The notes beneath the pieces were generated by a model. The model was not told where the DNA came from and did not search any database. It saw only the letters and a list, made by a program, of their open reading frames with translations. The position numbers were made by a program, and so were the translations under genes. A DNA stretch of 64,000 nt from Bdellovibrionales bacterium (GTDB lineage: Bacteria; Bdellovibrionota; Bdellovibrionia; Bdellovibrionales; UBA1609): positions 407,046 to 471,045 of the forward strand of contig JADJVA010000006.1 of assembly GCA_016716765.1 (NCBI GenBank). Direction: 5' to 3'. Each line of letters opens with the position of its first letter. Positions within the stretch are counted from its first letter, which is position 1. Shown piece by piece: positions 1,871-59,102 of the stretch.

Positions 1871-3285
1871 ATGAAAGAATACTTGCTTGCGGTCTCAATT
1901 TTACCATTTTTTATCGTCAGTAATCAGTCGTTTGCCGATAGTGCAAAAGGCGAAATTGCAACTCTGACAGCTCCGCCATTTGTGCCGCCGCCAATTACAA
2001 GAAAAACCTCTGCTAAATTGATTGTAAACCTTGAAGTGGTCGAAAAGAAAATGAAAATCGCTGATGGAGTAGATTACACGTTTTGGACCTATGGAGGAAC
2101 CGTTCCCGGAAGTTTTATTCGAGTCCGAGAGGGTGATTCTGTCGAATTTCACTTAAAAAATCATCCATCGTCTAAAATGCCACACAATATCGATTTACAT
2201 GCGGTTACTGGCCAAGGTGGAGGCGCAGGAGCGTCCTTTACTCTCCCAGGCCATGAAAGTGTCTTCTCATTTAAGGCAATTAACAAAGGACTCTACGTTT
2301 ATCACTGTGCGACTGCTCCGGTAGGAATGCATATAGCAAATGGTATGTATGGTTTGATTTTAGTAGAGCCAAAAGAGGGTCTGCCTAAGGTTGATCGCGA
2401 GTACTATGTTATGCAAGGCGACTTTTATACCAAAGGTAAATTCGGCAAACAGGGCTACCAACCTTTTGATATGGAAAAAGCAATTGACGAAAGACCGACT
2501 TATGTTGTTTTCAATGGATCAACCAGTTCAATGACCGGAGACAACGCTCTAAAAGCAAGAGTGGGCGAAACTATTCGTTTATTTGTCGGCAATGGCGGGC
2601 CAAATTTGGTTTCATCCTTTCATGTCATTGGAGAAATTTTTGATAAGGTCTATAAAGAAGGGGCATCTGAATTCAATACAAACGTTCAGACAACTTTAGT
2701 GCCTGCCGGTGGCTCAGCCATCGTTGAGTATAAAGTTGAAGTGCCAAGCAATCTCGTGCTTGTAGATCATAGTATATTTCGCACCTTTAATAAGGGTTCC
2801 CTGGGACTTATGAAAGTCGAAGGCGCAGAAAATTTGGAAATATATTCTGGTAAAACAGCAGACAATGTCTATTTGCCTGAAGGCGGTGCCATTCAAAAAG
2901 TGACTGACAAGGAAATTGTCAGTGTGGCGGCAACGCTTGAAGATCAGATTAAGTTTGGAAGAAATATTTACCAGCAGAACTGCGCCGCCTGCCACCAAGC
3001 AGATGGCAAAGGTATTCCTGGAGCATTTCCCCCATTGGCATCCGCAGATTATTTCAATGCGGATTGGAAGCGTGCCATTGATGTCGTTAAAAACGGGAAA
3101 ACTGGCGCGATCACTGTAAATGGAACACCCTATAACGGTGTTATGCCATCGCTAGGGCTAAGTGAAGAGGACATTGCCAACGTGCTGACTTTTGTCTCTC
3201 ACTCTTGGGGAAATAAAAACGTGTGTTTAAGAAATCTGATGTTTCTGCGGTACAGCTAAAAAAAGAAAAAGCTGCGGAGCACTAG
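1871..3285 (+). CDS. nirK: Copper-containing nitrite reductase NirK with C-terminal class I cytochrome c domain (three-domain type); apparent 1-nt frameshift near the 3' end
   Basis: Cu-ligand motifs HNIDLHAV and [20 protein letters not shown]. Heme motif NCAACH with GVMPS. The listed ORF ends at 3259. A 1-nt correction in the A5 run 3215-3219 gives ...[26 protein letters not shown], with its stop at 3283-3285 abutting the next ATG. Confidence 0.9.
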
Positions 3286-4050
3286 ATGAGCTTGCTAATC
3301 AGTAGTTTTTTAATAATTGCTTTTACAACAAGCTCATTAAAAGCTTCTGAATTAGTAACGGTTCCAAAGGGAAAGGTTGAGGCCATATGGCTATCACCAG
3401 TTTCAAAAAAGGCAAAAGTAAAATCGAATAAAGTTATAATTGCGGTCGACGCCTTTAGAACTCAAATCTATCCAGTAACAGTTACGCAATTTAGAGAATT
3501 TCTTGGAATACATCCGGAGTGGTCTAAAAGCAATACCTCCTCGTTATTCAAAGACGACTACTATCTGCGTGATCTTGAAACAGCTCCAGAAAAAGCACCG
3601 GTCACATTTGTTACCTGGTTTGCTGCAAGAGCTTATTGTGAGTCGTATGGACTTCGATTGCCAACAATTAACGAATGGGAATATGCCGCGGCTGCATCGG
3701 AGTCAAATAGGAATGCTAATCGTGAAGAAAAATTTTTGCGACGTATTCTGAATTGGTACGGCGAACCTCAGGGTGAGCGACTCAAAGATGTGGGCAGCAT
3801 CTATAAAAATGTTTACGGCATCTGGGATATGCACGGATTAATTTGGGAATGGGTTGATGATTTCAACTCTAGCTTTGTAACCGGAGAGAGCCGTGAGGAT
3901 AGCTCTTTTAATAAGGATATGTTTTGCGGGGCAGGAGCGCTTTCGTCAGCAGACAAAGAAAACTATGCTGCGTTTATGCGATTCGCATTCAGATCAGGTC
4001 TCAAAGGTAAAAGTGCCGTTTGGAATTTGGGATTTAGATGTGTCCGATAG
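3286..4050 (+). CDS. nirV: Formylglycine-generating-enzyme (SUMF1) family protein, NirV-like
   Basis: Signal peptide. FGE-fold motifs WEWVDDF and LGFRCVR. Sits immediately downstream of nirK, as nirV does in other denitrifiers. Confidence 0.7.
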   Translation: MSLLISSFLIIAFTTSSLKASELVTVPKGKVEAIWLSPVSKKAKVKSNKVIIAVDAFRTQIYPVTVTQFREFLGIHPEWSKSNTSSLFKDDYYLRDLETAPEKAPVTFVTWFAARAYCESYGLRLPTINEWEYAAAASESNRNANREEKFLRRILNWYGEPQGERLKDVGSIYKNVYGIWDMHGLIWEWVDDFNSSFVTGESREDSSFNKDMFCGAGALSSADKENYAAFMRFAFRSGLKGKSAVWNLGFRCVR

Positions 4051-4058
4051 GGGGTTTT

Positions 4059-4643
4059 ATGTATCTATTTAATTTAGTAAAAAAAATTTCAATCTTTTTG
4101 ATGTTTTCGCTTGTCGCACAAAACGCTGTTGCGGAATCGTTATACGATCTTAAAACAAGCTGGCGGGACACAGAAAATAATAGAACGGATGTATCTATCG
4201 CAAAAGGATCTTATACGATCATCGCGATGGTTTACACAGGATGTGCACACGCCTGCCCGCTGACAATTTCAAAAATTATGGAAATTGAAAAAGATTTTTC
4301 AAAGGCCAAGTTTACAGAGCTGAAAATTGTCCTTGCGTAATTTGATGTAAAGAATGATCGGCCTCAAAGACTTAAGAAATACCAAGCCGAAAGAAAGCTA
4401 AACCCCGATCAATGGAAGTTTTTATCTGCCGAGACTGAGGACGATGCTCGCAAGCTCGCCGTCACTTTGGGAATCAGCTATAAGGATATAGGTGATGGTG
4501 ATTTTTCTCACAGTAATTTAATTACTTTATTAGATCCAAGCGGAAAAATATTAGCGTCAATAAATAGTCTAAACGCAAACACTGAGCCGCTAATTAAGGG
4601 CCTACAAGATTCTTTAAATAAGACACCAAAAAGTAAATTATGA
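4059..4643 (+). pseudogene. SCO1/SenC family copper chaperone interrupted by an in-frame TAA (4338-4340)
   Basis: Signal peptide and CxxxC motif (YTGCAHACP). After the TAA the same frame continues FDVKNDRPQRLKKYQ...DFSHSNLITLLDPSGKI, the conserved SCO1 C-terminal half. Its stop overlaps the nnrS start (ATGA). Confidence 0.75.
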
Positions 4644-5764
4644 GCTCGACGAAAAACGAAGACAGAATAGAACCTTATATTTTGCTGTTTCCCACTGGAT
4701 GCCTACTGGGTTTTCTTGGTCTCATTTTCTGGGTCTTCTTTCAGTTTGGCTGGATACAGTTCTATCCTCGCGAACCACACGGTAATTTGATGTTTTTTGG
4801 TTTTTTATGGTCTTTTGTCGCCGGTTTTTTAATGACGGCCATACCAAAAATGACTTCAACGTCTCCCTCGAAATTAGGCGAAACCTCTGTTGCAATCTCT
4901 CTTATTTTTGTTCAGATAATTCTTAATGTCAGAAATCTTACCGATGTCTCCGCCATGGTTTTTCTATTACAAAATATTTTTCTTCTGTTCTTTATCGTGC
5001 GACGATTTCTAGTTAATCGAAAGGTCCCATTTTTTGGTTTTATTTTCTTACCCACTGCATTCATTCAGTCATTTTTAGGTGTCGTATTGTTTTTTATCTA
5101 CAGAGATCGCAGTTTTTTTCTCCTGCTTGCAGGCGAAGCGTTTATTTTGAACTTGATATTGGGCCTTGGCAGTAGACTGATACCAGTCATATCTAGATTA
5201 CCAAACGCATTGCTGCCAAATGAAAGTTCAAGTTCTGAAAGTTTTGTTTGGCCATTGATTACTTTACTATTAGTTAATTTAGGTTACTGGTGTGAAGTTT
5301 TAGGTTTTAGAGAATTAGGAGTCAGTCTTAGAATTCTCGGGATGATCTTCGCGGCCGTAAAATTACTTAAACTGTTCGCAATGCCTGTAACCTGGTCTTA
5401 TGTTGGTGTTGGATTAAAAATATCAGCTGCAATGCTAATTGTGGGACAGGTTTTTAGTTTGTCCTTCTTTAACAGTATACTTGCAGGCCAACACCTTATT
5501 TACATAGGTGGTTTTTCAATAACTACTTTACTTGTGGCAACGAGAGTGATTCTAGCCCATGGTGGTCAAAGTCTAAATTATGAAATTTCCTCAAAACGGT
5601 TGATATCCATCGTAATGCTCATTTTACTGTCAGCGCTCCTGCGGTTTTTTGTACGAAATGATGTCTCAAATTCCTTTATAAGTATCTCAGCACTGATTTT
5701 TATTTTTGGGCTCGCGCTTTGGGCAGTTCTACTTCGAGGGTTTCCCAAGCGGCACTCAATTTAA
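4640..5764 (+). CDS. nnrS: NnrS family membrane protein (NO-response heme/copper protein)
   Basis: 374 aa, about 12 TM helices. N-terminal PREPHGNLMFFGFLWSFVAGFLMTAIPKMT pattern typical of NnrS. Located in the nirK context. Confidence 0.7.
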   Translation: MSSTKNEDRIEPYILLFPTGCLLGFLGLIFWVFFQFGWIQFYPREPHGNLMFFGFLWSFVAGFLMTAIPKMTSTSPSKLGETSVAISLIFVQIILNVRNLTDVSAMVFLLQNIFLLFFIVRRFLVNRKVPFFGFIFLPTAFIQSFLGVVLFFIYRDRSFFLLLAGEAFILNLILGLGSRLIPVISRLPNALLPNESSSSESFVWPLITLLLVNLGYWCEVLGFRELGVSLRILGMIFAAVKLLKLFAMPVTWSYVGVGLKISAAMLIVGQVFSLSFFNSILAGQHLIYIGGFSITTLLVATRVILAHGGQSLNYEISSKRLISIVMLILLSALLRFFVRNDVSNSFISISALIFIFGLALWAVLLRGFPKRHSI

Positions 5765-6497: not shown

Positions 6498-6745
6498 GGT
6501 CTGGAGCCTACCACTTGTATTGGCTTGGGCCAAGAATCCAGGAAAAAAAGGGCTCAGATAATTATTGCAGCGCTCTATATGGCCCTCTCTTCCTACTTTG
6601 GTCCAGAATCGTTATTAACATTTTATTAAGGTCTTTGAAGTACCGACATAGCCTTCAAGAAGAATGGCTAGAGAAGACAGGGAGACAGAAACCAAAACGG
6701 CAAGCTCGAGAGAGCTTAGTAGAACTGAAGAAAAGCGAAAATGAG

Positions 6746-7399
6746 ATGCACAAGATGAAGATTTTAAACCTCAGTTTTATCTCGGAAGCTGCAAAGGTCA
6801 GTTTGATTTTCGCATGCATTCAATTGACAGCTTGTACAACGAGTATGCTGACCGTGCAGACCTCACCCGAAGGGGCCGATGTGTACGTTGTTTATCCGGG
6901 ACAACAGCCCTCTCGTTTGGGCAAGACTCCTTTGAGCATGGACAGTTATCCTCTCTCATCGCAGCCGGGAGATTCGTTAAAATTGATTGTTGAGAAAGAG
7001 GGGTTTCGTGCTGAGCATTACTTAGTTCCAAAGACGGTCTTTGCAGCGAGCATCCGTCTCGATATCGAAATGAGGGAGAGCAAATTGCCGGCAGCATGTA
7101 CGGATCAAGACGCAGCCGTCGAAGAGGTCGCTCGATCCGTGGCTCAGGCCCAGTCTCATATTCAGGCTAAAATGTATGATAACGCACTTCGAATTTTAAA
7201 AAATCTCAATGATAAATTCCCCAACTCTAGCGTTGTTTACGATCTGATGGGGAACACTCACTATCTGATGAAGGACTTGGAGAAAGCCCTTAGTTCGTAT
7301 GAAAAATCACTGAGACTCAGTCCAAACAATAGTGAAACACAAAGAATGGTGGCCAAATTGAAACAGATATATTCCATTCGTTCTCCGGCGGGTAATTAG
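6746..7399 (+). CDS. Lipoprotein with PEGA domain and C-terminal TPR repeats
   Basis: Lipobox IQLTAC. PEGA-like TVQTSPEGADVYV...LGKTPL. TPR-like YDNALRILKNL...YEKSLRLSPNN. The ORF's upstream extension to 6443 overlaps the divergent HAD gene, so the start is set at 6746. Confidence 0.65.
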   Translation: MHKMKILNLSFISEAAKVSLIFACIQLTACTTSMLTVQTSPEGADVYVVYPGQQPSRLGKTPLSMDSYPLSSQPGDSLKLIVEKEGFRAEHYLVPKTVFAASIRLDIEMRESKLPAACTDQDAAVEEVARSVAQAQSHIQAKMYDNALRILKNLNDKFPNSSVVYDLMGNTHYLMKDLEKALSSYEKSLRLSPNNSETQRMVAKLKQIYSIRSPAGN

Positions 7400-7401
7400 C
7401 C

Positions 7402-8199
7402 ATGTTTTACCTCGTCGGACTCATTATAGCGACTTCCAGTGTGGTGGCTGTTGTTGTTCATCTTCAGCAGGCCTACAATAGCTATTGGGACTTTGTGGCC
7501 TTTGCGATGGTGCTAGGCGGAACCATGGCTGTAGCAACAATTATTGCACCCTGGGATATCTACCGCGATTTTGTACGAAACCTGAAGCGACTGTTCGTCT
7601 ACGTGGCACCATCACAGAGAGAGTTTCTGCAACTGTGTCTCGATATTATTTCTAAGCATAAGAATGGTCTAAAGGACTTTAAGGTTGATCCGTCTCGTTT
7701 GGAACAGAGAATTCTTCGCGATGGACTGGAGCTGATCTCACTTGGGTTTAATCCAGACAAAATAGAAATCATTTTAAAGGAAAGAGTCTATCAAGCAAAT
7801 GAGCGAAATTTTAGGGTCAGTGCCATGGTTCGCTCCTTGGCAAAATATCCACCAGCTTTTGGTCTTGCTGGTACAGTTTTCGGTCTGGTGCATCTGATGC
7901 GCGGAGTTTCAGAGGGAATGAATGCAAAAGAGACAGGTATTCGGATGGCGATTGCCCTCGTTGCGACACTTTACGGACTGATGGTAGCCAACTTATTCGT
8001 GAATCCGGCGGGAGAATTGATGAATCGGTTTGCGAAGATGGACGAGGTTCTTGCGGAAATTGCAATTCAGGCCGTTCTTTTGGCAGCAGACGGCACTCCG
8101 GTTCTAGAGGCGCAGGAAATGTTAAATTCCTTTGTTGATACGGATCAGAGAATCGACTTAACCTCGATTGCAGAAATCCCGAACGCAGGCGCCGCGTGA
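7402..8199 (+). CDS. motA: MotA/PomA-type stator proton-channel protein
   Basis: 265 aa, 4 TM helices. PPAFGLAGTVFGLV and ALVATLYGLMVANLFVNP motifs of the MotA/TolQ/ExbB family. Starts 2 nt after the preceding stop. Confidence 0.85.
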   Translation: MFYLVGLIIATSSVVAVVVHLQQAYNSYWDFVAFAMVLGGTMAVATIIAPWDIYRDFVRNLKRLFVYVAPSQREFLQLCLDIISKHKNGLKDFKVDPSRLEQRILRDGLELISLGFNPDKIEIILKERVYQANERNFRVSAMVRSLAKYPPAFGLAGTVFGLVHLMRGVSEGMNAKETGIRMAIALVATLYGLMVANLFVNPAGELMNRFAKMDEVLAEIAIQAVLLAADGTPVLEAQEMLNSFVDTDQRIDLTSIAEIPNAGAA

Positions 8200-8218
8200 G
8201 AGCAGGACAGAAGGAGCC

Positions 8219-8947
8219 ATGAGAGCAATCAGTCGAAATTTACATAGAGCTCACGAAGAAATCGATACAGAAGGGACGTGGGCGATCAGTTACGGAGATA
8301 TGGTAACTCTACTCCTGAGCTTCTTTGTTCTCTATTTTACGGTGGATCAAAAAGCCGATCAAGCACAGCACCTTCAAGATTCCCTTATGGCGAGTTTAAA
8401 AAGCCTTTCTGAAGAGGACAAACCCATCGATAAGAGTTCATATAAGTTGCATATTGGAGAGGAAAAATCGACAGAAATTGACCAAAAAATAATTGATCGA
8501 TTGGGCGCCAAAGTTCACCAAGTGGGACAGAAGATTGTCATCGAATTTCCCGGTGTTTCTTTCTTTGATATTGGAAAAATTGATTTGCGTTCAGATGGAG
8601 TTAGGATGCTGAGTGAGTTTGTAACGGCCTATCTCCCCTTTGCGGGAAAATACAGTTTGGGCGTTCACTCCTTTACAGATACTCGACAGGTATTGAGAAC
8701 AAAAAATCGGCGATTCAATGATAACCTTGAACTTTCAGCCTTGCGGTCGGTCGCCGCGATGAGGGTCTTGCAATCGAGGGGAATTCCCCTTCATGCAATG
8801 AGGATCAGCGGATTGGGTGAATTGGAGGTCACGTCGGAACAACTCAAGGCGTCTGGGGTCAATCTCTTGAGTGGAGATCCCAGAGACCTCGCTCGAAAGG
8901 TTGTATTGGTTGTTGAGCCTGCTGTCGAACGTGGAGGTAAGGGGTGA
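8219..8947 (+). CDS. motB: MotB-type stator protein with OmpA-like peptidoglycan-binding domain
   Basis: AAGGAG RBS before the ATG at 8219. N-terminal TM WAISYGDMVTLLLSFFVLYF with the conserved Asp. OmpA-like C-terminus (NDNLELSALRSVAAMRVL). Confidence 0.85.
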   Translation: MRAISRNLHRAHEEIDTEGTWAISYGDMVTLLLSFFVLYFTVDQKADQAQHLQDSLMASLKSLSEEDKPIDKSSYKLHIGEEKSTEIDQKIIDRLGAKVHQVGQKIVIEFPGVSFFDIGKIDLRSDGVRMLSEFVTAYLPFAGKYSLGVHSFTDTRQVLRTKNRRFNDNLELSALRSVAAMRVLQSRGIPLHAMRISGLGELEVTSEQLKASGVNLLSGDPRDLARKVVLVVEPAVERGGKG

Positions 8948-10710
8948 AAAAATCGTTTCTTATGTCACTTCTCTTGTTATCTCTTTTTCCTCTTACTGTG
9001 ATGATTCCGTCGGGCGTTTGGGCTCAGAACGACACTCGTCACCCGCGGGTGGCCGAGCTGGAAGACCAGTATAAAAGACAAGCCATGGATTTTCTGAAAT
9101 CTCGATTTCCTCATCTGCCGTTTTCAGTTGTTGTCAGCATTGATCCTCTGAGACGAGTTTCGGCTGACAATTATCAGGCGAAACAGGAGGCTTTACCCTA
9201 TTATTTACTACAAGATGAAGAAATTCGGGATGAGTGGGATGATCCCAATGCAACGCTGTATGTGCTGAGCAGGCGAATAAAATCTGTTCAAGTTTCTGTT
9301 TCAGTGCCTTCAACGGTTGCGGATGAGGAGCTTTCCGAAATCAAGGAGACTCTCATTTCTTCATTGAGGCTTGTTCCAGCCAGAGATAAGATTGAAATTT
9401 TGAAGCGTTCCTGGTCAGGCCTACCCAATTTTTCAGTTTATGCGGGGATTGGTTTGGCGGCCATTCTTATTTTTCTCCTTGGGCTTTATGCAATTACCCG
9501 CATGTCCTTGCGTCGGATGACTCGTGCGTTTAGTGAGTTGCAGACATCTTTGGGGTCAAAAAACAATCAAGCCTCTGTCAGTCCTCCGCCCGTGGTGTCG
9601 ATGGTCGAAGATAATAAGAACAATGGACAGAGTGGGGGTGATTTTCGATTTACGGATCCGATTAAGATCAGAGAGGTCATCGCAGGGCGAGTTCATGAGC
9701 TACTCTATTCGGATGAGTTTCCTCGTCTAGAGGACATTGTAAGCTTGGATCGGTTTGCACAAAATGATTCTCGTTCAACCGGAGCCCTGATCTCTGAATT
9801 TCCTCTCGATATGCAGCGTCGGCTATTTTCGCTTGGAAGGGGAGAATACTGGATGGAGTCCTTTATCGAGCCAGGAGAGTTGGTTCCCCAGTGTTTGGAA
9901 ATACTTGAGCGTCTCTGTCGAGTTCATAAATCAAAAAGAGGGAAGGAATGGGAGGCCTTGCTGATACAAGTTTGGCGAATGGACGAGTTAACAAGAGTGA
10001 GGTTTTTGCGGACAATTGATCAAGATGAATCAATGGCCATAGTTCATTCGATGCCAAAAAATGTTTCGGTGCCAACGGCACGTCAGGCCTTTCCGGGAAG
10101 TTGGGGTGCTGTCTTAGATCCTCAATTTCGTCCCGCTAAGATCACGGCAGAGCGAATCATGCAAATCGGCGAAAAGGCGATGGAGATTTTGCCTCCGGTG
10201 CCGTTTGAGATACTTGAAACATACAGGCAGGAAAAGGATCTCATCGCTTATCTCAATGTCTCTGATGTGGCTGCAGAGAGAGACATTTATCGAGCCTCCC
10301 CAGAAACGGCGATGATTCATCGAATAAGACCTCCCTTTTATCGTGTTGTGCAAGATGATAAGGCCTATATGGAGCAATTCGTTAACATGATTAGTTTAGA
10401 CGACTGGGCTTTGTCTCTGTTTAACGTGAGTCGAACTGAACGGGCAAATATAGATCGGCACTTTTCAAATAAGCAAAAATTCATATTTATTGAGAAATTG
10501 AAAGCACTTGATTCAAGAAACCCTGAGCTTCGCCAGATAGGATTGATCAGGGAGAGGATTGCCAGAAGTTATGCGGATTATAAAAAGGGAATAGAGCTCA
10601 ACCAAAAGGTTGGAGACATCGCGAGAAATCAGGAAATTGAGCCAGACTCTCAGGCTGAATCTGAAGCCAAGCAGAATGACAGTGGGGATACGGAAGAGAA
10701 TGTCGCCTAA
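8944..10710 (+). CDS. Membrane-anchored protein: signal peptide, periplasmic domain, one TM helix, cytoplasmic FliG/MgtE-N-like helical domain
   Basis: GTG start overlaps the motB stop (GTGA). Signal peptide; TM FSVYAGIGLAAILIFLLGLYAI. C-terminal DDWALSLFNVSRTERANIDRHFSNKQKFIFIEKLKAL resembles the FliG_C pattern. The family call is by eye only. Confidence 0.6.
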   Translation: MKKSFLMSLLLLSLFPLTVMIPSGVWAQNDTRHPRVAELEDQYKRQAMDFLKSRFPHLPFSVVVSIDPLRRVSADNYQAKQEALPYYLLQDEEIRDEWDDPNATLYVLSRRIKSVQVSVSVPSTVADEELSEIKETLISSLRLVPARDKIEILKRSWSGLPNFSVYAGIGLAAILIFLLGLYAITRMSLRRMTRAFSELQTSLGSKNNQASVSPPPVVSMVEDNKNNGQSGGDFRFTDPIKIREVIAGRVHELLYSDEFPRLEDIVSLDRFAQNDSRSTGALISEFPLDMQRRLFSLGRGEYWMESFIEPGELVPQCLEILERLCRVHKSKRGKEWEALLIQVWRMDELTRVRFLRTIDQDESMAIVHSMPKNVSVPTARQAFPGSWGAVLDPQFRPAKITAERIMQIGEKAMEILPPVPFEILETYRQEKDLIAYLNVSDVAAERDIYRASPETAMIHRIRPPFYRVVQDDKAYMEQFVNMISLDDWALSLFNVSRTERANIDRHFSNKQKFIFIEKLKALDSRNPELRQIGLIRERIARSYADYKKGIELNQKVGDIARNQEIEPDSQAESEAKQNDSGDTEENVA

Positions 10711-11280
10711 AATTGGAAAATTCAGAAAATCAATTTGGATTTCCGTTTGCCTCGTAGCCGCGATGGCTTTCTCGACTCAGAAAGCTCGGGCGACAAAGAT
10801 AGACGTGATGACAGGGTATTACAGCATAACGGCCGAAACGGCCACAGCCAGCAGCGAAATTTCAAATTTTGGACTCTATCGAATTAACTATATGATCTCG
10901 CTGCTCCCAAAAATGGAATTGATTGTTGGCTACAGTTTAATGATGAGCGACATTTTGGGGGCGACTTGGGCTTCGGGATCGACGGCTCTTTTGTTTATTA
11001 TCCGATCAGCACGAGTTGGAGGATACAGGCCGCCGTCGACAACGCCAAAATGAGTATTGACGGATTATGGAGACCCTATATGGGAATGGGCTTTTCCCAG
11101 AGACAGTTTCAATCAGTGCAGAGCACCTACGCCGGCTTTTCGTTTAACTTGGGAGTTGAGAGATCATTAGCTAGAGCCTTCGATTTAAAGGGAGAAGTTC
11201 GCTATCTTTTTTTGCAAGGCACTCGCGATTCTACTGCGACCGAATTGTCTGCAGTCGCTGGTGTCGTATTCTCCTTTTGA
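10700..11280 (+). pseudogene. Small outer-membrane beta-barrel protein, frameshifted in a G-run (10957-10961)
   Basis: Signal peptide VAAMAFSTQKARA. Alternating beta-strand pattern with a C-terminal ...AGVVFSF. Two overlapping ORFs (10610..11053 and 10966..11280) join if one G is added. The start overlaps the upstream gene by 11 nt. Confidence 0.65.
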
Positions 11281-11568: not shown

Positions 11569-13071
11569 ATGGCGAATTTCAAATGGAAGAAAGATGTTCA
11601 TGCGGCACTCATTGTGTTGAGGTCGGATTTTGTATGTTTGGATCTGAGTTCATCTTTCAGGTCATTTTTAGTTTGGTTCACTCTTGCCTTGTTGACTATT
11701 TCTCTTTCGAGTTGCAAGAAAAACAATAAGGCTTTCGATTTTCTTGAAGAGGAGCCGTCTATCTCGGCTGGCGAGGTTGATATTGTTGGATACACTCCTG
11801 AAGATGATCCGGTTGTGGTCGCAGAAGGAAAGTCAACCACATTTGCGGTTTCTCTTGGGCCCACGGCCGGAAATGAAGTTACCTACGTCTGGAAGCTAGA
11901 TGATGTTGAGGTGGCCACTGGCTCAAATCCATTCTATGTTTTGAATGGATCCTCACTCACTTCGGGTTCCCATTCGCTTGTTGTCGAGGCGCGGAATACC
12001 AAATACGGAGCTTCCAAGACCTTCAATGTCCGCAAGAATGCTGCTCCAACTTTAACATTGACGACTCCCGGTGCCACTGGAAATTCTGTCAACGTGAACG
12101 GATCGATCAGTTTTTCTATTCAGGCCGCTGATTCAGATGGAGATTCCCTCTCTTATACTTGGAAACTCAACGGAGTCGAAGCGCCGAGTGTCTTTGCGGT
12201 CACAAGTTCGACCACAACCTCGACAGCCATTTTTTCTCCAACTCTGACTCAAGTTGGTTCAGGTACTATTAAAGTTGAAGTCTACGATGGACATGATACC
12301 ACCTCTTATTCTTGGGGAATCGACGTCGTAAACCCCATCACTGCAGTTATCAACAGCTACAGTCCGACGACCGCGCTCGTTATTGTGACTTCAACTGGGA
12401 GTGTTGACTTTAGCATCAGTGCAACAGCAAAAACTCCAACAATTTATAGTTGGAAACTTGATGGTGTGGCGGTAGGAACGGCGACGAATCTCTACACCTT
12501 AACAGGAGCCGGATTAACTGTTGGGACTCACACATTGATCGCGAAGGTCGAGGATTCAGACAGCTCAGATACCCATACCTTTTCGATCAAGCGCAATGCT
12601 GCCCCTGTTCTTTCTAATCCTTTGGCAACGCCCAGCTCCCAGGTTATTAATTATGGCTCTCAAATGACCATCACTATCGATGGCACAGATGCCAATTCAG
12701 ATGCTCTCAATTACACTTGGACTTTAAACGGTAATCCCAGTGCCACACTTTCAGCAAGTAATACGGCAACAGGGAGTCAGGTGATTTTTCAGCCAAATGT
12801 TTCGCTAACAGGAGATCATACGATTTCGGTCTCAGTGACTGACAGCACCGAGGTCGCAAACTATTCCTGGAATGTGAGTGCCAATCGTTTTACGGATGCC
12901 TGCAATCAGTTGACGTCTGGAAAAATTTGCACCTTGGTGGGAGTTCCTTCGGGTGGTTCCGGCTTAAATTCGGTCGATGACCAAACCAAGCAAAAAATCT
13001 ATTTTCGAGATGTGATCGATGATGGGTCTGGAAATTGGGTGTATGCGGATAGTCATAATAATGCCATTTAG
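11569..13071 (+). CDS. Surface protein, N-terminal part: lipoprotein-like signal and four Ig-like (PKD/Big-type) repeats
   Basis: Repeat signatures TYVWKLDD, SYTWKLNG, IYSWKLDG and NYTWTLNG at a period of about 90-100 aa. Ends at the TAG at 13069-13071, which is in frame with the next ORF. Confidence 0.75.
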   Translation: MANFKWKKDVHAALIVLRSDFVCLDLSSSFRSFLVWFTLALLTISLSSCKKNNKAFDFLEEEPSISAGEVDIVGYTPEDDPVVVAEGKSTTFAVSLGPTAGNEVTYVWKLDDVEVATGSNPFYVLNGSSLTSGSHSLVVEARNTKYGASKTFNVRKNAAPTLTLTTPGATGNSVNVNGSISFSIQAADSDGDSLSYTWKLNGVEAPSVFAVTSSTTTSTAIFSPTLTQVGSGTIKVEVYDGHDTTSYSWGIDVVNPITAVINSYSPTTALVIVTSTGSVDFSISATAKTPTIYSWKLDGVAVGTATNLYTLTGAGLTVGTHTLIAKVEDSDSSDTHTFSIKRNAAPVLSNPLATPSSQVINYGSQMTITIDGTDANSDALNYTWTLNGNPSATLSASNTATGSQVIFQPNVSLTGDHTISVSVTDSTEVANYSWNVSANRFTDACNQLTSGKICTLVGVPSGGSGLNSVDDQTKQKIYFRDVIDDGSGNWVYADSHNNAI

Positions 13072-13104
13072 TTTTATAACCGTTCAGGATCGAATATTGT
13101 TCGC

Positions 13105-15255
13105 TTGGAAAAGACAATTCCGACTGGTACAACAGTCATGATTATGAACAACGGTGCTATTGGTCGAACGGATGACTTCAGTACGTACAACAACTTTAAA
13201 TTGTACAATCCCAGCGGCATTGCCTATGATGCGGCAAATGATCGCCTTTTTATTGCTGATATCAGCAGCAACCGCGTCGTCAAAGTAGATTCATCAGGAG
13301 TGGGATCGACTCTCCTTGGAACCTTGGGAACCGGTCAGGGAGGCGTAACAAACAGTCAAGATACGGCCGGGACGACGCACGTCTGCGGGAGTCCTCGTGA
13401 TTTGGTGTACATCAATCCGGATGTCTATGTGACTTGTTCTCAATCTAATTCGATTAAGATGGTGAATGCGAATACCGGGCTAGCTCGGGTTGTGGTCGGC
13501 ACAGTGACATCCGGGTCAACAGCTGCTGGCAATGGAGAAGGAACAGCGGGGAGCGGGGCTGGAACAGCTCAAGTCAATGCTCCGCAAGGAATAGAAAAGG
13601 ACTCTTTGGGCAATCTCTATTGGACCGAGGTTGGATCGGGCAATGATTGTCGATTGAGAGTCTGGAATCGAACTGCTGGTACAATAAACTTTTTTAACTC
13701 AACGGTCTCGGTGCTTTCTGGAGAGACGGCGACTTTGGCGGGATCGTCCACCAATTGCACCTATGTGGGCGGAGCTCGTGCAGCCATTCGATTGGGCCAG
13801 GTTTACGGATTAGGAGTTCATGAATCCGGTGGAGTGGTTCAGGGGTTCTTCTTGCCGAGCTATAACTATCATCGCGTGATGTATATTAATAATTTAAATT
13901 CGAGCCAGGTTCATGGTGGAACGACAGTCAATGCCCTTGAGGGTGCTACCGTGATCGGAGATGGAACGGCTTCCTACAATGGAGATGGCGCTCTTGGAAA
14001 CCTCATTCGCGTTTACTACCCCTTTAATATGTCGATGACTGCGACGGGCAATGATGTCCTCCTCGCGGACTACTCCAATCTGCGAGTGCGGCGAATGACC
14101 TTGGCCTCAGGCTTGGTGTCGACCGATGTGGGTGCTGGTCGGTTGCGCTATGGGCTTGTGGGTGGCTCCGATGAAAGTGCAAGCGAAACGGTCCTCAATT
14201 TGCCTTATGATATGTCAATCGATGCCGGCAATAATAAGCTTTATTTTACCGACAGCGGAAACTACCGCATTCGTCAGGTCGATTTGATTACGGGCTTGGT
14301 GTCGACAATTATTGGAGAAGGGAATGCTGGCGATGGGAATATTCAAAACGAGGATCCGACAAATGTGAGGATGCGTGATCCGCGTGGAGTGATTCCATTT
14401 GGTGATCACTTGTTGTATTCAGATGCCACATCTGGGAATTGCGTTGTGCGTGCGTATAATCGAGCTGCCACCGCACAAAGTATTTTTGGCGTGACAATAA
14501 ATCCATTAAAGGTATCAACTATTGCCGGAAACACAATTGCGGGGTGTGCGACATTTCAAGGAGGCGGAGGGGCAGCCACCAATGCGCGGCTTCGCAATCC
14601 TGAAGGCATTGTTTCAGATGGGACAAATCTTTTTATCGCGGACAGTGCCGATGATTGTATTTTAAAAGTTTCCTCAGCTGGAATTATCAGTTCTTATCTG
14701 GGCACTTGCAATTCCGGAGGCTATGGTGAGGGTCCATTGGCAGGTATCACTTTAAACGACCCCACCTCCATCGTTTTTGATCCGAGCTATCCGGGTACGG
14801 GTAACTTCTTTTTTGTCGATCAGACCAATGTAGGAACGGCGAGAATCCGATATGCAAACTACACGGGTGCTCAAGTCACGATTGCAGGAGTTGCTGTCAA
14901 CGCCAATAGCGCAAATACCATTTTTGCCGAGACGGGGACTCCTCGACTTTATGGAATTGCGGCCTTTTCGAGTCAGCTGTGTTATTCATCTGGTCATACA
15001 AATGGTCTGAATGGCAATCACAATGTCATTTGTCGAGATCGAAACTCTGGCCTTGCACCGGTCACACTCAGGGCTGGGTCCAACCTAGGCGATGTCAAAG
15101 GCTCTGGTGGTCCCCTGCACTATGAGCATGAAGGCGTTGATGCTTTCCAGGCTCTCTTGAATAGACCAGGAGGATTGGCTTTTGATGCATCGGGAAACCT
15201 CTATATTATTGAGCGAAATAATTCCTTGATTCGCAAAGTAAAACGTTGGTTTTGA
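13105..15255 (+). CDS. Surface protein, C-terminal part: NHL-repeat beta-propeller region (same frame as 11569..13071)
   Basis: Repeated NHL-like units (NPSGIAYDAANDRLFIADISSNRVVKV, LYFTDSGNYRIRQVD, NLFIADSADDCILKV, NLYIIERNNSLIRKV). The frame is open from 13072. Confidence 0.75.
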   Translation: MEKTIPTGTTVMIMNNGAIGRTDDFSTYNNFKLYNPSGIAYDAANDRLFIADISSNRVVKVDSSGVGSTLLGTLGTGQGGVTNSQDTAGTTHVCGSPRDLVYINPDVYVTCSQSNSIKMVNANTGLARVVVGTVTSGSTAAGNGEGTAGSGAGTAQVNAPQGIEKDSLGNLYWTEVGSGNDCRLRVWNRTAGTINFFNSTVSVLSGETATLAGSSTNCTYVGGARAAIRLGQVYGLGVHESGGVVQGFFLPSYNYHRVMYINNLNSSQVHGGTTVNALEGATVIGDGTASYNGDGALGNLIRVYYPFNMSMTATGNDVLLADYSNLRVRRMTLASGLVSTDVGAGRLRYGLVGGSDESASETVLNLPYDMSIDAGNNKLYFTDSGNYRIRQVDLITGLVSTIIGEGNAGDGNIQNEDPTNVRMRDPRGVIPFGDHLLYSDATSGNCVVRAYNRAATAQSIFGVTINPLKVSTIAGNTIAGCATFQGGGGAATNARLRNPEGIVSDGTNLFIADSADDCILKVSSAGIISSYLGTCNSGGYGEGPLAGITLNDPTSIVFDPSYPGTGNFFFVDQTNVGTARIRYANYTGAQVTIAGVAVNANSANTIFAETGTPRLYGIAAFSSQLCYSSGHTNGLNGNHNVICRDRNSGLAPVTLRAGSNLGDVKGSGGPLHYEHEGVDAFQALLNRPGGLAFDASGNLYIIERNNSLIRKVKRWF

Positions 15256-18419: not shown

Positions 18420-18666
18420 TTCTCAATAAAAGCGTATCATAACGAGCGAGCCAGAAATTCAAATTCTCGTTTCGAGTCAAAATATAATATAAAAAGGGAA
18501 AGAATGAGATATGTCAGGCAAACTGACACTGACTAAAAACTGTCACATGTGGAGGCATTAGACAAGTGTCCAGTCGGCATACGCCATGCAATAGGTTAGA
18601 ATGGAACTGATTGGAGTTAATCAGTTAAGGGGGAGCGGCGTGGCGATCACAAATTGGTCCATTGGG

Positions 18667-20787
18667 ATGAAAAATAGATTTAAGAGTCAGTTGCTCAAAT
18701 ATCGTACACTTCGGCTACAGAAATATACGTTGATGGTCTCATTAACTTTGTTGATCGTTCTATTTCAGAACTGTGATCCAGCTGGAGTTCCTATCGGAAG
18801 TGCGCCACATGGTGATGGATTTGTCGATAGTGCGAGCGGAAATGGCAATGGAAGCGGCAACAATCCACCCGGAGGAAATAGCACGCCGCCACCCGGAGGC
18901 GGCACACCACCACCTGGCGGCGGCACACCACCACCAGTTGTGACGGGCAACCCTCCCCCGCCTAATCCAACTGGGATTGCTTTAGCAGCAAATACAGTTA
19001 ATAGCATTTCTTTGACTTGGACTGCGGGAGGAGGAAGCACGGTCGCCTATCGGGTGGCTTATCAGGAAGGAACAACAGCTCCGGCAAATTGTGGGAGCGG
19101 GACGGTGCTCTCAGTTAATTCCACAGTTGGCTTGGCTGCCAATTTGACAAGAGCTAAGCAATACTCTTTTCGAGTTTGTGCCGTAAATGGCAATACGACT
19201 CCAGATATGTCTTCCGGAATCACCTATACGACCGGTACGAGGTGTTTTCAGAATCCAGCTCCCACAATTGTGCAGGACACTTTTGCGAGTTTTTCTTTTC
19301 CGATGGGAATGGGTCCGCTCTCAGGCACGGCTACGAATATTCCGCAAGTCGCTGTGACGGGAACAAATGCTGGAGGACCCTACGATCTAAATCAGACTTA
19401 TTCGCTTCGATGCACAACTTCTGTCAATAATATTATCGACGTTGATTGTGCAGATAATAACGGAACCAATTTTAATAATAATGCGGCAAACATCCGATTT
19501 CAGCAGCCAGCGAATAGTCAATGTCAACCGACAGGTCCCGTCACAGTGACAATGGTCGCTCGAGATGAGTGTGGTGCTGAGTCCCCTGCAAAAACAATTG
19601 TCGTAAACGTGACAAACGAGTGTCTTCCAGAGGCAAAAGTTGTAGCTGTAGAAAAGGCACAGAATGATCAGTTTGGAAGTCAGGTGGCCATTGACGGTGA
19701 CTACGCAGTTGTCGTTGAAACGGGTGACAGTGAAGGCGGTGACGGGGCTGGAGCTGCGAATGTCTTTTTTTACAATGGCACCAGTTGGATTTTTCAGCAA
19801 AAATTGATTCCTACAGAAGCCGCAGTGAGCGATAACATGAAGAGCGTTGCCATTAGCGGAAGTAGAATCGTTTTGGGGAGTCCCTATCACCCCACCGCTG
19901 GAGTTGGAGCCGTCTTTGTTTTTGATCGCTCTGGCTCTACTTGGACACAAACCGCCAAGATCACTCCATCTCAACCTAACGTGCAAGATGTGGGTGACCT
20001 TTTTGGATACTCCGTGGCTCTTTCGGGCAATCAGTTGGTGGTCGGGGCACCTTGGGATAACAACGTTGAAACAGCAGGATCAAAATTGGCCTACGCGGGT
20101 GCCGTTTATGTCTACAACTTGTCAGGTGGCGCATGGGTTCAAGATGGAAGCAAAGTTGTCGTTAGTGGAAATACCGGACGCAATGAATTTGGAGCAAGTG
20201 TTGCAATAGGCACGAATTACATTGTGGTCGGCGCACCTCACAATGAGACGTTCAAGGGAAATGGCAATGGCAAGGCGTACGTGTTGAAAAAGCCTGCCAC
20301 GAACTGGACAGTTTCTCAGACCTTAGAGTCTTCAAATAAAAAAGCCGGAGATATGTTTGGAATTTCGGTGAAGACTGATGGGACGCGGATCGCTGTTGGG
20401 GCCATCTTTGCCACAGGGCGGGCTGGTCAAACCTCGTCGGGAGCCGCTTACATCTTCGAAAATACGGGTAGCTGGGTTCAAACTGCATCAATTGGCGCAA
20501 GTGATGTGGCAAATGGAGATCGTTTTGGAGTTTCAATTGCTCTAGCTGGAGATGATTTACTTATTGGCTCTCACTGGGATGATTCAAAAACTGGCGCTGT
20601 TTATCACTATCGACGCAGTGGCGCTAGCTGGACTCAGAGTTTTAAAATTATGTCGCGTGACAGAGCTCTCAACGATGAGTTTGGAAGTTCGGTTGCTATG
20701 TCTAACCGTCGAGCTATTTGCGGCAGTCGTTTGGATGATGGAGCGGCCGAAAATATTGGAGCGGCCTACATTGTCAATCTCAAATGA
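18667..20787 (+). CDS. Lipoprotein with Pro/Gly-rich linker, fibronectin-III-like domain and FG-GAP beta-propeller repeats
   Basis: Lipobox LFQNC. Repeated FG-GAP-like units (FGSQVAIDGDYAVV, FGYSVALSGNQLVVGAP, FGASVAIGTNYIVVGAP, FGVSIALAGDDLLIGS). The ORF opens at 18601, but the Met at 18667 precedes the signal peptide. Confidence 0.75.
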   Translation: MKNRFKSQLLKYRTLRLQKYTLMVSLTLLIVLFQNCDPAGVPIGSAPHGDGFVDSASGNGNGSGNNPPGGNSTPPPGGGTPPPGGGTPPPVVTGNPPPPNPTGIALAANTVNSISLTWTAGGGSTVAYRVAYQEGTTAPANCGSGTVLSVNSTVGLAANLTRAKQYSFRVCAVNGNTTPDMSSGITYTTGTRCFQNPAPTIVQDTFASFSFPMGMGPLSGTATNIPQVAVTGTNAGGPYDLNQTYSLRCTTSVNNIIDVDCADNNGTNFNNNAANIRFQQPANSQCQPTGPVTVTMVARDECGAESPAKTIVVNVTNECLPEAKVVAVEKAQNDQFGSQVAIDGDYAVVVETGDSEGGDGAGAANVFFYNGTSWIFQQKLIPTEAAVSDNMKSVAISGSRIVLGSPYHPTAGVGAVFVFDRSGSTWTQTAKITPSQPNVQDVGDLFGYSVALSGNQLVVGAPWDNNVETAGSKLAYAGAVYVYNLSGGAWVQDGSKVVVSGNTGRNEFGASVAIGTNYIVVGAPHNETFKGNGNGKAYVLKKPATNWTVSQTLESSNKKAGDMFGISVKTDGTRIAVGAIFATGRAGQTSSGAAYIFENTGSWVQTASIGASDVANGDRFGVSIALAGDDLLIGSHWDDSKTGAVYHYRRSGASWTQSFKIMSRDRALNDEFGSSVAMSNRRAICGSRLDDGAAENIGAAYIVNLK
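18883..18936 (+). repeat. In-frame 21-bp tandem repeat encoding TPPPGGG (about 2.6 copies)
   Basis: acgccgccacccggaggcggc / acaccaccacctggcggcggc / acaccaccacca. Confidence 0.85.
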
Positions 20788-20859
20788 CTGTGCTGGCGGG
20801 TTGAGGTCTGAAGAATGTTTCGAATGCTGAGATTTTTTGGGAACAAGAGGGGTAAGAGA

Positions 20860-22959
20860 ATGAGTCAAAGGAATATAAAATTGAAAAGTAGCCAGATAAT
20901 ATTAGGCCTATCTTTCGCATTATCGCCATTGACCTCATTTGGACTTGCTGTTGACGGCTCAGAGGAATTTCCAGGTCAGCGGGCCGGAATCGTGGCTCTT
21001 TATGAATTCAATGATACAACAGGTCCTGTTCTTGATACTTCCGGCGTTGGCACCCCTTTGAATTTAACGATTGATTCTCCCGCATCTGTCATTCGTTCTG
21101 GAGGAGCCCTTGATATTGAAGCGCCAACCTTGATTCATTCAGGCGGGCCGGCCACAAAGATCATAGATGCCTGCAAAGCATCCAATGAATTGACCATTGA
21201 AGCCTGGGTTGAGAATAATCAGGATCGTCCGCCCCGTCCGAAGCCCGTGAGAATTGTCACGCTATCAAATAAGGCGGGAAATGCCGCAGATCAACTTTCA
21301 TCCACCAATCGAAACTTTTTCTTAGGGCAAGATTATATAGATTCAAATCGATTTCATGGGGTTGTGAGAACGTCTGGAAGTCGTGACGGAGCAGAAGTTA
21401 TTACTGAGCAAGGAGTTTCTGCATTTAAGAAACTCCAACACGTCTTTTTCTCTCGTGATGCTTCTGGTGTTACCCGTCTTTATGTGAGCGATGAGTATGG
21501 GGTCAATATATTGCGGGAGACAGTTCTGAGCAATGAGACAAGGGGAACCTTTACCAACTGGGACAATGGAATGATATTGGGTATTGGAAATGAAATTTCA
21601 TATCTTGATCCAGCTGCACGTGCTGATGCAGTTGAAACAAAATTCAAAACAGAAGAGAGAGCTTGGCTTGGGAAGATTCATCTCCTCGCTATATATTGTC
21701 GAGCGCTCACACCTAAGGACATTAGCGGAGATGCGGCACCAGGGAATAAAGTGTATCCTGCTTACAAGCCTGTGCCTGGAGATCCTATTACCGAAGGCAG
21801 AAAAAAGGCGATTTTGCTCTATAAGCGTTTAGCTGGAGTGAGCACTTCAATAGACAATCCAATCGTGAGGGAGATGGGTCAACGGATAGATGCTCAAGAC
21901 ATGATTGGCGCGGCTGATTTGGCCTCTCAAGAAGCTGATTTTTATAATATTACAGTTCGTGACTTTGCTGGTCGAATGTCAACACGCGATGAAACGGTCA
22001 ATGCTCCTCTGAGCGACTTTGTTGCAACAGTGATTGGCGTCACTCGCGATGATATCAATGCGAAGCAATTGTTGACAGGTAACTTCACTTATCAGGGGGA
22101 TCCTCGTAAGGCGGCCGTCGTGCGAAATACTTTGGACGATATTGTCACTACTAACAATCATTATGACGCCCTGTCGAGCGGAAATTTTGATTTAAAAAGA
22201 GTATTAGTTAAAGTTGATGGACAAAAAATTTATAATGGTGCTGGTGGGGTAGTAGACAATCCTGATCCAGCTGGAGTGTTGACGAGTCGCGCTTTTCTCC
22301 AAGCGCATGCATCGGCTGGAACCAATCGACGCATCGTCCAGTATTCCTTTAAGGTTTTTCTCTGCAATGATATTGAGGGATGGGCAGATTCTAAGCAGTC
22401 AGATAACTGGGTTGGGCGTGATGTCGATCGTTTCCCAGGGGGAGATACGGCCCAGTATTCGTCCAAATGTGCTGCTTGTCACAGCGTGATGGATTCTCTG
22501 AGAAACGCTTTTTCTCGTTATGACTTTTCAAATGATGTTATTAAGTACGCCTCTATCATGCCTGATGGAAATGGCGACAGTCGGGAAACGATGGAGGAAA
22601 GTCCATCGGGAATTTCAGCTAAAATGAATCGCAATGCAGATACCTTTCCTGGTGGATTTCCATCATCCGGAGACAGCTTTATTAATTACATACGGTCGGG
22701 TGCCAACAAATCCTACTTTGATTGGGGATCAAAGGTATCTGGTTCTGGAGCTTCAGAATTCGGTTTGATGTTAAGTGAATCAGGAGCATTTCCGCGTTGC
22801 TTGGCTCGCAGAGTTTTTCGCTCAGTATGTAAGCGCGATCCAGTGAGTTTTGAAGAGGACATGTTAAAAAATGCGGCGAGATCCTTTACGGAAGCGAATT
22901 ACAGTCTCAGGGAATTATTTAAGCGCATTGCGATCAGCAGAGAATGTTTGGGCCAATAA
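20860..22959 (+). CDS. Secreted LamG-like plus DUF1588/DUF1585-like protein with a CxxCH motif (planctomycete PSD-type family)
   Basis: Signal peptide. LamG-like NELTIEAWVEN...HVFFSRDASGVTRLYV. AGVLTSRAFLQAHASAGTNRRIVQ (DUF1588-like). KCAACHSVMDSLRNAFSRYD. C-terminal ANYSLRELFKRIAISRE (DUF1585-like). Confidence 0.6.
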   Translation: MSQRNIKLKSSQIILGLSFALSPLTSFGLAVDGSEEFPGQRAGIVALYEFNDTTGPVLDTSGVGTPLNLTIDSPASVIRSGGALDIEAPTLIHSGGPATKIIDACKASNELTIEAWVENNQDRPPRPKPVRIVTLSNKAGNAADQLSSTNRNFFLGQDYIDSNRFHGVVRTSGSRDGAEVITEQGVSAFKKLQHVFFSRDASGVTRLYVSDEYGVNILRETVLSNETRGTFTNWDNGMILGIGNEISYLDPAARADAVETKFKTEERAWLGKIHLLAIYCRALTPKDISGDAAPGNKVYPAYKPVPGDPITEGRKKAILLYKRLAGVSTSIDNPIVREMGQRIDAQDMIGAADLASQEADFYNITVRDFAGRMSTRDETVNAPLSDFVATVIGVTRDDINAKQLLTGNFTYQGDPRKAAVVRNTLDDIVTTNNHYDALSSGNFDLKRVLVKVDGQKIYNGAGGVVDNPDPAGVLTSRAFLQAHASAGTNRRIVQYSFKVFLCNDIEGWADSKQSDNWVGRDVDRFPGGDTAQYSSKCAACHSVMDSLRNAFSRYDFSNDVIKYASIMPDGNGDSRETMEESPSGISAKMNRNADTFPGGFPSSGDSFINYIRSGANKSYFDWGSKVSGSGASEFGLMLSESGAFPRCLARRVFRSVCKRDPVSFEEDMLKNAARSFTEANYSLRELFKRIAISRECLGQ

Positions 22960-23000
22960 TTGAATATTAAATATTAAACGAATGAACAGGGGAGAATAGA

Positions 23001-23693: not shown

Positions 23694-23722
23694 AATTGAA
23701 AAAATGAAAGTTGAGGATTTTT

Positions 23723-25201: not shown

Positions 25202-25205
25202 GTTT

Positions 25206-50195: not shown

Positions 50196-50220
50196 CTTGC
50201 AAAAAGATGAAGGGGAAGAA

Positions 50221-59077: not shown

Positions 59078-59102
59078 AGGGGAAGAATCGCTAAGGAGAG
59101 GG

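Follow-up and report, generated by a model that had tools for sequence, protein, structure and literature searches.

We analysed a 64,000-nucleotide (nt) stretch of a Bdellovibrionales bacterium genome (GenBank assembly GCA_016716765.1, contig JADJVA010000006.1, positions 407,046 to 471,045 of the forward strand; hereafter the window), and investigated a gene cassette in it that combines a flagellar-type MotA/MotB stator pair with a membrane-anchored FliG-like protein (g4), an outer-envelope lipoprotein (g1), a small outer-membrane beta-barrel (g5) and a giant lipoprotein (g6). In our judgement there is an even chance that these six genes constitute a Bdellovibrionota-specific module, namely a flagellum-derived, autonomous rotor–stator coupled to outer-envelope partners. 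Homology and modelling identify the stator pair and predict both a FliG_C fold and a ring-building-motif (RBM) fold in g4; ring formation, contact between the stator and g4, rotation and the output of the module we infer. The features of the locus, with lengths in amino acids (aa), are as follows.

6746–7399, + strand: g1, a 217-aa outer-envelope lipoprotein
7402–8199, + strand: MotA-like stator A subunit, 265 aa, four transmembrane helices, flagellar type
8219–8947, + strand: MotB-like stator B subunit, 242 aa
8944–10710, + strand: g4, a 588-aa FliF(RBM3)-like and FliG-like fusion, the presumed rotor subunit
9040–9408, + strand: predicted g4 periplasmic domain, residues 33–155
9421–9501, + strand: predicted g4 transmembrane helix, ~residues 160–186, a hydrophobic stretch
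9556–9657, + strand: predicted g4 disordered linker, ~35 aa
9658–10638, + strand: predicted g4 cytoplasmic FliG-like region, residues 239–565
10462–10515, + strand: g4 torque-helix-like segment, residues 507–524
10700–11280, + strand: g5, a small outer-membrane beta-barrel, ~193 aa in relatives and split here
11569–15255, + strand: g6, a giant Ig/PKD and NHL lipoprotein, ~1226 aa if read through

A sequence-only reading of this DNA had described a self-contained five-gene cassette ending at 11280. Its first four open reading frames (ORFs) were reproduced, all on the + strand and at the positions listed above, as were its junctions: a 2-nt gap (7399/7402), a 19-nt gap with GAAGGAG before 8219, a GTGA overlap at 8944–8947 and an 11-nt overlap at 10700–10710. 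The order and strand of the five genes are likewise kept in relatives, but g5 is not one ORF in the window; the barrel family proposed for the fifth gene is present in relatives, whereas here the gene is frameshifted into two ORFs. Its span of 581 nt (10700–11280) is not a multiple of three and holds ORFs in different frames at 10700–11053 and 10966–11280, because the window lacks a single base after 10956 that is present in a 92%-identical relative (L051, GCA_016714165.1); g5 is one ORF of ~190 aa in 28 of the 28 relatives where both halves are detectable. Nor does the cassette end at 11280, since a sixth conserved gene, g6, was found at 11569–15255. This gene carries an in-frame TAG at 13069–13071, where L051 has TGG, and its two ORFs in the window align head-to-tail to single proteins of 1226–1330 aa beside the cassettes of relatives.

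We scanned one genome per GTDB species with a degenerate pattern and obtained 50 loci, nearly all labelled Bdellovibrionota. The order and orientation g1-MotA-MotB-g4-g5 is the same in these 50 GTDB species wherever the contig allows, most junctions being −4 or −1 nt overlaps, and the five genes of the cassette are accordingly co-conserved in related genomes. The genes beside MotA and MotB are not merely unrelated neighbours: the partners are constant, and the 126 flanking ORFs closest to the cassette in ~47 loci share no recurrent flagellar family (25 families are listed, of which 13 recur and none is flagellar; the most frequent occurred just three times). Pfam searches detected no flagellar or chemotaxis family in window ORFs of at least 120 aa from 17 to 31357, nor in sampled ORFs out to 55 kb (55193). 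The statement of the sequence-only reading that no fli, flg or che gene lies within more than 10 kb on either side holds for the ORFs tested, but cannot be checked upstream because the window contains only 6.7 kb 5′ of the cassette.

The ratio of nonsynonymous to synonymous substitution rates (dN/dS) between the window and L051 was 0.02–0.16 for the six genes, also downstream of both lesions, except for a value of 0.36 over an 84-codon N-terminal piece of g5 upstream of the frameshift. These comparisons indicate strong purifying selection on all six genes. L051 has single-base indels of its own at other sites, in g1, MotA and g6 (equivalent to window positions 6970, 8013 and 12438), and for this reason we read the lesions in g5 and g6 as probable errors of assembly or very recent changes rather than as decay. 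With gene order kept in 50 species and low dN/dS, the comparison of sequences identifies the cassette as a real, conserved unit, far beyond chance.

We then characterized the stator pair. MotA matched PF01618 at 9.1e-19 (67.9 bits against a cutoff of 22.9), and its PPAFGLxGTVxGL and ATxYGL motifs are conserved across 44 MotA homologues. The best NCBIfam matches were full-length hits to the MotC/MotP/PomA/MotA families (1e-26 to 1e-21), compared with only 1.6e-3 to 1.5e-2 for TolQ/ExbB; MotA fell below all NCBIfam equivalog cutoffs (best 93 bits against 237), and its PDB matches were MotA/PomA only. MotB matched MotB_plug at 1.5e-9 (37.7 bits against a cutoff of 24), its C-terminus is OmpA-like (2.9e-4; 21.5 bits, under the cutoff of 27.2), and its best NCBIfam match, to MotD, was full length at 2e-18, far under the equivalog cutoff (best 66.8 bits against 283). 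In the PDB, MotB matched 6ysl and 3khn (MotB-C, 9e-7). Its transmembrane helix carries the ion-binding Asp27 (codon 8297–8299) within an SYGDM motif, which is kept together with D27 in at least 85% of 47 MotB homologues; DNLELSALR and the plug region are also conserved. These profile matches place MotA and MotB with the flagellar-type, not the Tol/Exb-type, ion motors. The description of the pair as a canonical stator stands for the domains, the Asp, the plug and the peptidoglycan-binding end, but not for the canonical FliG-contact charges of MotA, which are not conserved.

The protein encoded by g4 belongs to a family of 240 representatives, nearly all of ~550–600 aa, recovered by an exhaustive hidden Markov model (HMM) search of 1.84e9 proteins. 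At E ≤1e-3 this profile search did not reach genuine FliG or FliF and, because it stopped short of FliG, g4 appears to be a discrete family that is not merged with FliG by sequence. Pfam FliG_C matched 21 of 44 family members (best E 6e-8) and MgtE_N matched three; FliG_M, FliG_N and YscJ_FliF were absent from the Pfam matches listed for these 44 members. Searched against PDB sequences, the g4 profile gave a sole match, 1qc7 (T. maritima FliG_C), at E 0.11, in a register that pairs K510 with R281 of E. coli and E517 with D288. Within the torque-helix-like segment the charges are largely retained (K/R510 in 44/44, K/R512 in 40/44, E/D517 in 33/44, K/R520 in 39/44 and D/E523 in 42/44).

A full-length AlphaFold2 model of g4, with a predicted local distance difference test (pLDDT) score of 81.8, showed in order an N-terminal hydrophobic segment, a periplasmic domain, one transmembrane helix, a linker and an all-helical cytoplasmic region of ~330 residues. 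Throughout the family the N-terminal segment closes with A-x-A-like sites (VWA↓Q), and it resembles a signal peptide that is cleaved off more than a first transmembrane helix. Residues 33–155 are modelled in the alpha-beta-beta-alpha-beta order of the ring-building motif, the transmembrane segment forms a helix at 163–205, and pLDDT is below 50 for residues 205–234. The top matches of a Foldseek search of full g4 against the PDB were only FliG (C-ring subunits, MC and full-length) and FliF RBM3/S-ring entries, the latter with a probability of 1.0 and modest template-modelling scores relative to the target (TMt) of 0.41–0.48. RBM1, RBM2 and a second transmembrane helix are not present in g4, whose periplasmic part comprises ~125 residues only. 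An insertion between RBM strands 1 and 2 contains a D96-E97-W98-D99-D100-P101 loop (9229–9246), with D96–D99 invariant and D100 and P101 kept in at least 90% of 44 homologues; this DEWDDP loop is without known counterpart.

Modelled alone, the cytoplasmic part of g4 reached a pLDDT of 95.5 and a predicted template-modelling score (pTM) of 0.85, and its 13 best PDB matches were all FliG. The C-terminal bundle superposed on FliG_C with a TMt of 0.77 and a root-mean-square deviation (rmsd) of 1.6 Å for 8ucs_H, a FliG fragment solved in complex with a MotAB stator, and with a TMt of 0.81 and an rmsd of 1.9 Å for 1qc7_B. Comparisons with MC and full-length FliG gave 220–350 aligned columns at probabilities of 0.8–1.0, with global TM-scores of only 0.2–0.4. 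The sequence-only reading had assigned a FliG-like cytoplasmic end to the 588-aa protein, and this assignment is supported by the FliG_C matches in 21 of 44 family members together with the 13 FliG structures; the profile-HMM and structure searches that it had proposed for the five products add the likeness to FliF RBM3. Because the periplasmic part resembles FliF RBM3, g4 is best described, on the strength of the models, as a natural mini-FliF (RBM3 only) joined via a transmembrane helix and a linker to a FliG-like domain. Unlike FliG, it is membrane-anchored, and neither the window nor the flanking sequence of relatives yielded a FliM or FliN.

The partners of the outer envelope were characterized in the same way. 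The g1 product, placed by the sequence-only reading as a PEGA/TPR lipoprotein at the head of the cassette, indeed has a lipobox with Cys30 (invariant in 38 homologues), a PEGA-like beta-sandwich and two to three TPR repeats, with Pfam matches to TPR_2 (3.6e-8) and, below threshold, to PEGA (2.7e-3), and with a weak YbgF/CpoB-like TPR match (1.6e-4). Its profile gave generic TPR matches only in the PDB, and g1 was found in every relative locus whose contig extends far enough. For g5, PF13505 (OMP_b-brl) matched 13 of 28 homologues (best 9e-9), and the protein ends in ...VVFSF. FlgP, FlgO, FlgT and PflA/B were considered as relatives of g1 or g5 and rejected, as the profiles gave generic TPR/OMP_b-brl matches only against the PDB and Pfam.

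The product of g6 matched the Pfam families Ig_3, PKD, Big_9, NHL and TEN_NHL, and giant lipoproteins of this type (1,000–2,200 aa, Ig/PKD-like repeats and NHL beta-propellers) are encoded in 27 loci by the gene immediately preceding g1 or following g5. Where the flanks reach 3 kb or more at both ends, which is the case in 23 loci, g6 adjoins the cassette in 18. A short motif, F-[GSA]-x-[ILF]-[LED], lies 4–11 residues after the lipidated Cys of g6 in 21 of 23 loci; in the window (11700–11740) the N-terminus reads C-KKNNKA-FDFLE. This motif could be a docking or sorting peptide.

We propose that the module originated as a duplicated, stripped-down flagellar motor core that would work apart from the flagellum. 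MotA and MotB would form an ion-driven stator anchored to peptidoglycan, as their sequences suggest, and g4, to judge from its fold, would oligomerise through the FliF-RBM3-like domain into an inner-membrane ring. A flexible linker would suspend the FliG-like domains of this ring beneath the membrane, in the way that FliF holds FliG by its C-terminal tail. By pushing on the charged helix that is conserved in the FliG_C-like bundle, the stators would turn or stress the ring. The periplasmic face of g4, with the DEWDDP loop, might relay this motion or force to g1, g5 and g6, and the output could speculatively be the moving or tensioning of a surface adhesin in the prey-seeking attack phase. In its fullest form, an autonomous rotary nanomachine in which a natural FliF(RBM3)-FliG ring is spun by its own stators, with no secretion apparatus or rod, and works on outer-envelope partners and a giant surface lipoprotein in the attack phase, the proposal is possible and we hold it tentatively. 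The more general idea of the sequence-only reading, a stator plus rotor-like module, survived the examination of the FliG fold, of co-conservation and of the neighbouring genes, and the likeness to RBM3 strengthened it.

Several results weigh against the proposed rotor–stator. The g4 protein of the window itself has no match in Pfam, FliG_C included, nor in NCBIfam. Alignment of g4 with FliG_C by hhalign gave an E of 2e-4 in the same register as 1qc7 but a probability of 45%, this profile–profile comparison being confined to the FliG_C domain (the collected FliG sequences are mostly ~100-aa FliG_C fragments). The Foldseek E-values of g4 were only ~1e-2, and modest global values are expected because g4 is flexible and multi-domain. 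The MotA segment for FliG contacts (window residues 84–99), which we compared with E. coli MotA R90/E98 and PomA R88/K89/E96/E97, is variable and gapped across the 44 cassette MotAs, conservation falling instead on D107, G108 and E110; the HMMER alignment to 6ysf gives the same register as the PomA reference sequence. Over 37 species, the net charges of the MotA loop and of the g4 helix likewise did not compensate each other (rho −0.21, p 0.21). Since the MotA charges are not kept and compensation was not detected, any contact between MotA and g4 would be non-canonical. No rod-like part to carry rotation through peptidoglycan was recognised, g5 and g6 are disrupted in the window, and the FliA-type motif that precedes g1 in 16 of 43 loci, compared with a background of 4% (p 4e-12), would place the cassette in the same regulon as the flagellum. 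Rotation and torque transfer are predictions from sequences and models.

The promoter motifs were scanned within 150 nt upstream of g1, at no more than two mismatches from the Bdellovibrio attack-phase FliA consensus TTAAG-N16-CCGATA (PMC3627812), and lay mostly 32–51 nt from the g1 start codon. Upstream of g1 in the window there is no correctly spaced FliA promoter, only TTAAG-N12-CCGACA at ~6626–6648, and a scan of the window for sigma-70 promoters and terminators stayed at background level. FliA drives about two thirds of the attack-phase genes in strain HD100, many of them non-flagellar (PMC3627812), and because of this the motif is not specific to the flagellum; it points to expression in the attack phase rather than to a flagellar part.

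Genomes of Bdellovibrio and like organisms (BALO) contain one to four motAB pairs, and HD100 has three (Bd0144/5, Bd3021/0 and Bd3254/3), all feeding one flagellum (PMC11323537); the sequence-only reading had itself given as a caveat that Bdellovibrio-like bacteria carry several flagellar motAB paralogues. Identity of the cassette with MotAB1, MotAB2 or MotAB3 of HD100 is improbable, as two protein searches and the cluster look-ups returned no HD100 orthologue of g4. From this absence in protein searches, HD100 probably lacks the cassette. Because HD100 appears to be without g4, the cassette would not be a general flagellar requirement, and its absence from the model strain would explain why it has been left unstudied. 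Searches with the g4 proteins of the window and of Bd5 returned metagenome-assembled genomes, Logan assemblies and few isolates; carriers in culture are Bdellovibrio sp. CKG001, HM001 and 'B. bacteriovorus' Bd5. Carrier annotations give motility protein A, MotB and hypothetical proteins only.

We weighed three other explanations. The strongest of them, which we consider unlikely, makes the cassette an accessory of a true flagellar motor, that is, an extra stator set with periplasmic and outer-membrane scaffolds in a FlgP/FlgO/PflA/PflB-like role, with g4 recruiting, parking or tuning stators at or around the flagellar base. Flagellar-type MotA and MotB would fit such an accessory, as would the FliA-type motifs that exceed background in 16 of 43 loci; a lipoprotein, an outer-membrane barrel and a TPR protein are, moreover, typical parts of flagellar disks and cages. 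The one to four motAB pairs of BALO genomes, three of them serving a single flagellum in HD100, also agree with it (PMC11323537). The FliA promoter is, however, unspecific in Bdellovibrio (PMC3627812), HD100 has a working sheathed flagellum apparently without g4, and the cassette stands beside no flagellar genes in ~47 loci. A flagellar accessory is further disfavoured by g1 and g5, which show no sequence relation to FlgP, FlgO, FlgT or PflA/B, by MotA, in which the canonical FliG-contact charges are not kept, and by known motor architecture, which has no place for a FliG that is anchored in the membrane and brings a ring-building domain along.

A non-rotary transducer of force or signal, in which the stator pulls or displaces single g4 molecules by way of their FliG-like domain, thereby changing the periplasmic domain and, with it, the lipoprotein and barrel, in a manner similar to the energising of the outer membrane by Tol-Pal or Ton, or in which g4 serves its stator as a membrane-bound FliG decoy or clutch, seems improbable to us. 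It would account for an envelope-spanning set of a TPR lipoprotein with a weak YbgF/CpoB-like match, a peptidoglycan binder and an outer-membrane barrel, for the lack of an axial rod and of canonical rotor–stator charge pairs, and for the long, disordered linker of g4. The RBM fold, which matched FliF here, is on the other hand a ring-building module that also occurs in SctJ/SctD of type III secretion and SpoIIIAG of sporulation, and FliG_C is known solely as a rotor element; MotA is not TolQ/ExbB-like, no TolA/TonB-like periplasm-spanning partner is present, and three conserved partners in the envelope would be superfluous for a decoy. We consider it very improbable that this genome retains only a decaying or functionless relic of the cassette, or that the genes adjoin by chance: the g5 frameshift and the in-frame TAG of g6 speak for decay, but dN/dS of 0.02–0.16 (0.36 for the short N-terminal piece of g5) speaks against it, the different single-base indels of L051 fit assembly errors, and synteny in 50 species argues against chance.

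Elsewhere in the window, a denitrification-type cluster lies at 1871–5764 of this Bdellovibrionales genome, comprising a NirK-like multicopper oxidase–cytochrome c fusion (1871–3259), an FGE-sulfatase/NirV-like gene (3286–4050), a short ORF (4038–4340) and NnrS (4640–5764). Downstream, a large fn3/FG-GAP repeat protein is encoded at 18601–20787 and followed by four same-strand ORFs of 230–714 aa (20815–26792), which had no Pfam match at 1e-5. Two further pairs of ORFs in the window also seem split (49752–50195 with 50002–50604; 57848–59077 with 58992–60254).

To our knowledge, no role has been described for FliG other than that of flagellar rotor, or for flagellar-type MotAB other than that of flagellar stator. 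We found no description in the literature of a FliG-like partner of a non-flagellar MotAB, nor of the cassette in Bdellovibrio, and reviews of 5:2 motors give coupling to FliG for the flagellum alone (PMC9389320). If the proposed rotor–stator is correct, g4, uniting the functions of MS-ring and rotor in one protein of 560–600 aa, would be the first FliG-type rotor outside the flagellum and the cassette, which has no export apparatus, rod or switch, a natural minimal rotor–stator pair, either as a stripped-down derivative or as a view of a rotor–stator interface existing without type III export. The cassette could ease structural and biophysical study of the stator–rotor interface, bears on the evolution and re-use of the torque-generating core independent of type III secretion, and may indicate an unrecognised envelope machine of predatory bacteria in their prey-hunting phase. 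For annotation, such MotAB pairs are at present counted as extra flagellar stators in BALO genomes.

The sequence-only reading had set the cassette apart from the flagellum, Tol-Pal, ExbBD-TonB, the Agl/Glt gliding motors and Zorya, and the comparisons that follow show differences from each of them. High-torque scaffolds (FlgP/FlgO/FlgT in Vibrio; FlgP/FlgQ/PflA/PflB in Campylobacter) likewise combine lipoprotein, TPR and outer-membrane parts with MotAB-type stators; we detected no sequence relationship of these to g1 or g5, and they surround a complete flagellum, none with a FliG-like membrane protein. Zorya shares a MotAB-like pair outside a flagellar context, but the cassette is without the long ZorA tail and without ZorC, ZorD and ZorE. 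An assignment to Zorya or another defence system was rejected: PADLOC returned nothing for MotA, g1 and g4, and only generic ZorB matches (2.6e-12) for MotB. Tol-Pal and ExbBD-TonB resemble the cassette as envelope-spanning sets with an OmpA-like peptidoglycan binder and a TPR protein, whereas the cassette has no TolA/TonB, TolB or TonB-box partners, and its MotA matches flagellar families at 1e-26 against 1e-3 for TolQ/ExbB. GldLM of the type IX secretion system (T9SS) and Agl-Glt couple an inner-membrane ion motor of the 5:2 type across the envelope to a large surface adhesin and to outer-membrane parts (PMC9389320, PMC8986121), as is proposed for the cassette. In GldLM and Agl-Glt, however, force exits via the B-type subunit or TolA-like periplasmic partners, and the A subunits are GldL- or TolQ-like; the A subunit of the cassette is flagellar-type, and its proposed partner is a cytoplasmic FliG-like domain.

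The closest comparison is with the flagellar motor itself. The cassette lacks FliM/FliN, export gate, rod, hook, filament, RBM1 and RBM2, its constant partners are a PEGA/TPR lipoprotein, a small outer-membrane barrel and a giant Ig/NHL lipoprotein, and none of ~47 loci lies in a flagellar gene cluster. Laboratory fusions of FliF to FliG build rings, and in Salmonella rotation is seen with a FliF-FliG fusion-deletion (PMC6079021, PMC10941966, PMC9389320); like the functional fusions of Salmonella and Vibrio, g4 would set FliF and FliG at 1:1 (PMC6079021, PMC9389320). What the cassette shares with FliF and FliG is an RBM3-like domain, a transmembrane helix, a flexible tail and a FliG-length region with a FliG_C-like bundle and charged helix, and what it shares with the motor core is a stator with plug, ion-binding Asp and peptidoglycan anchor.

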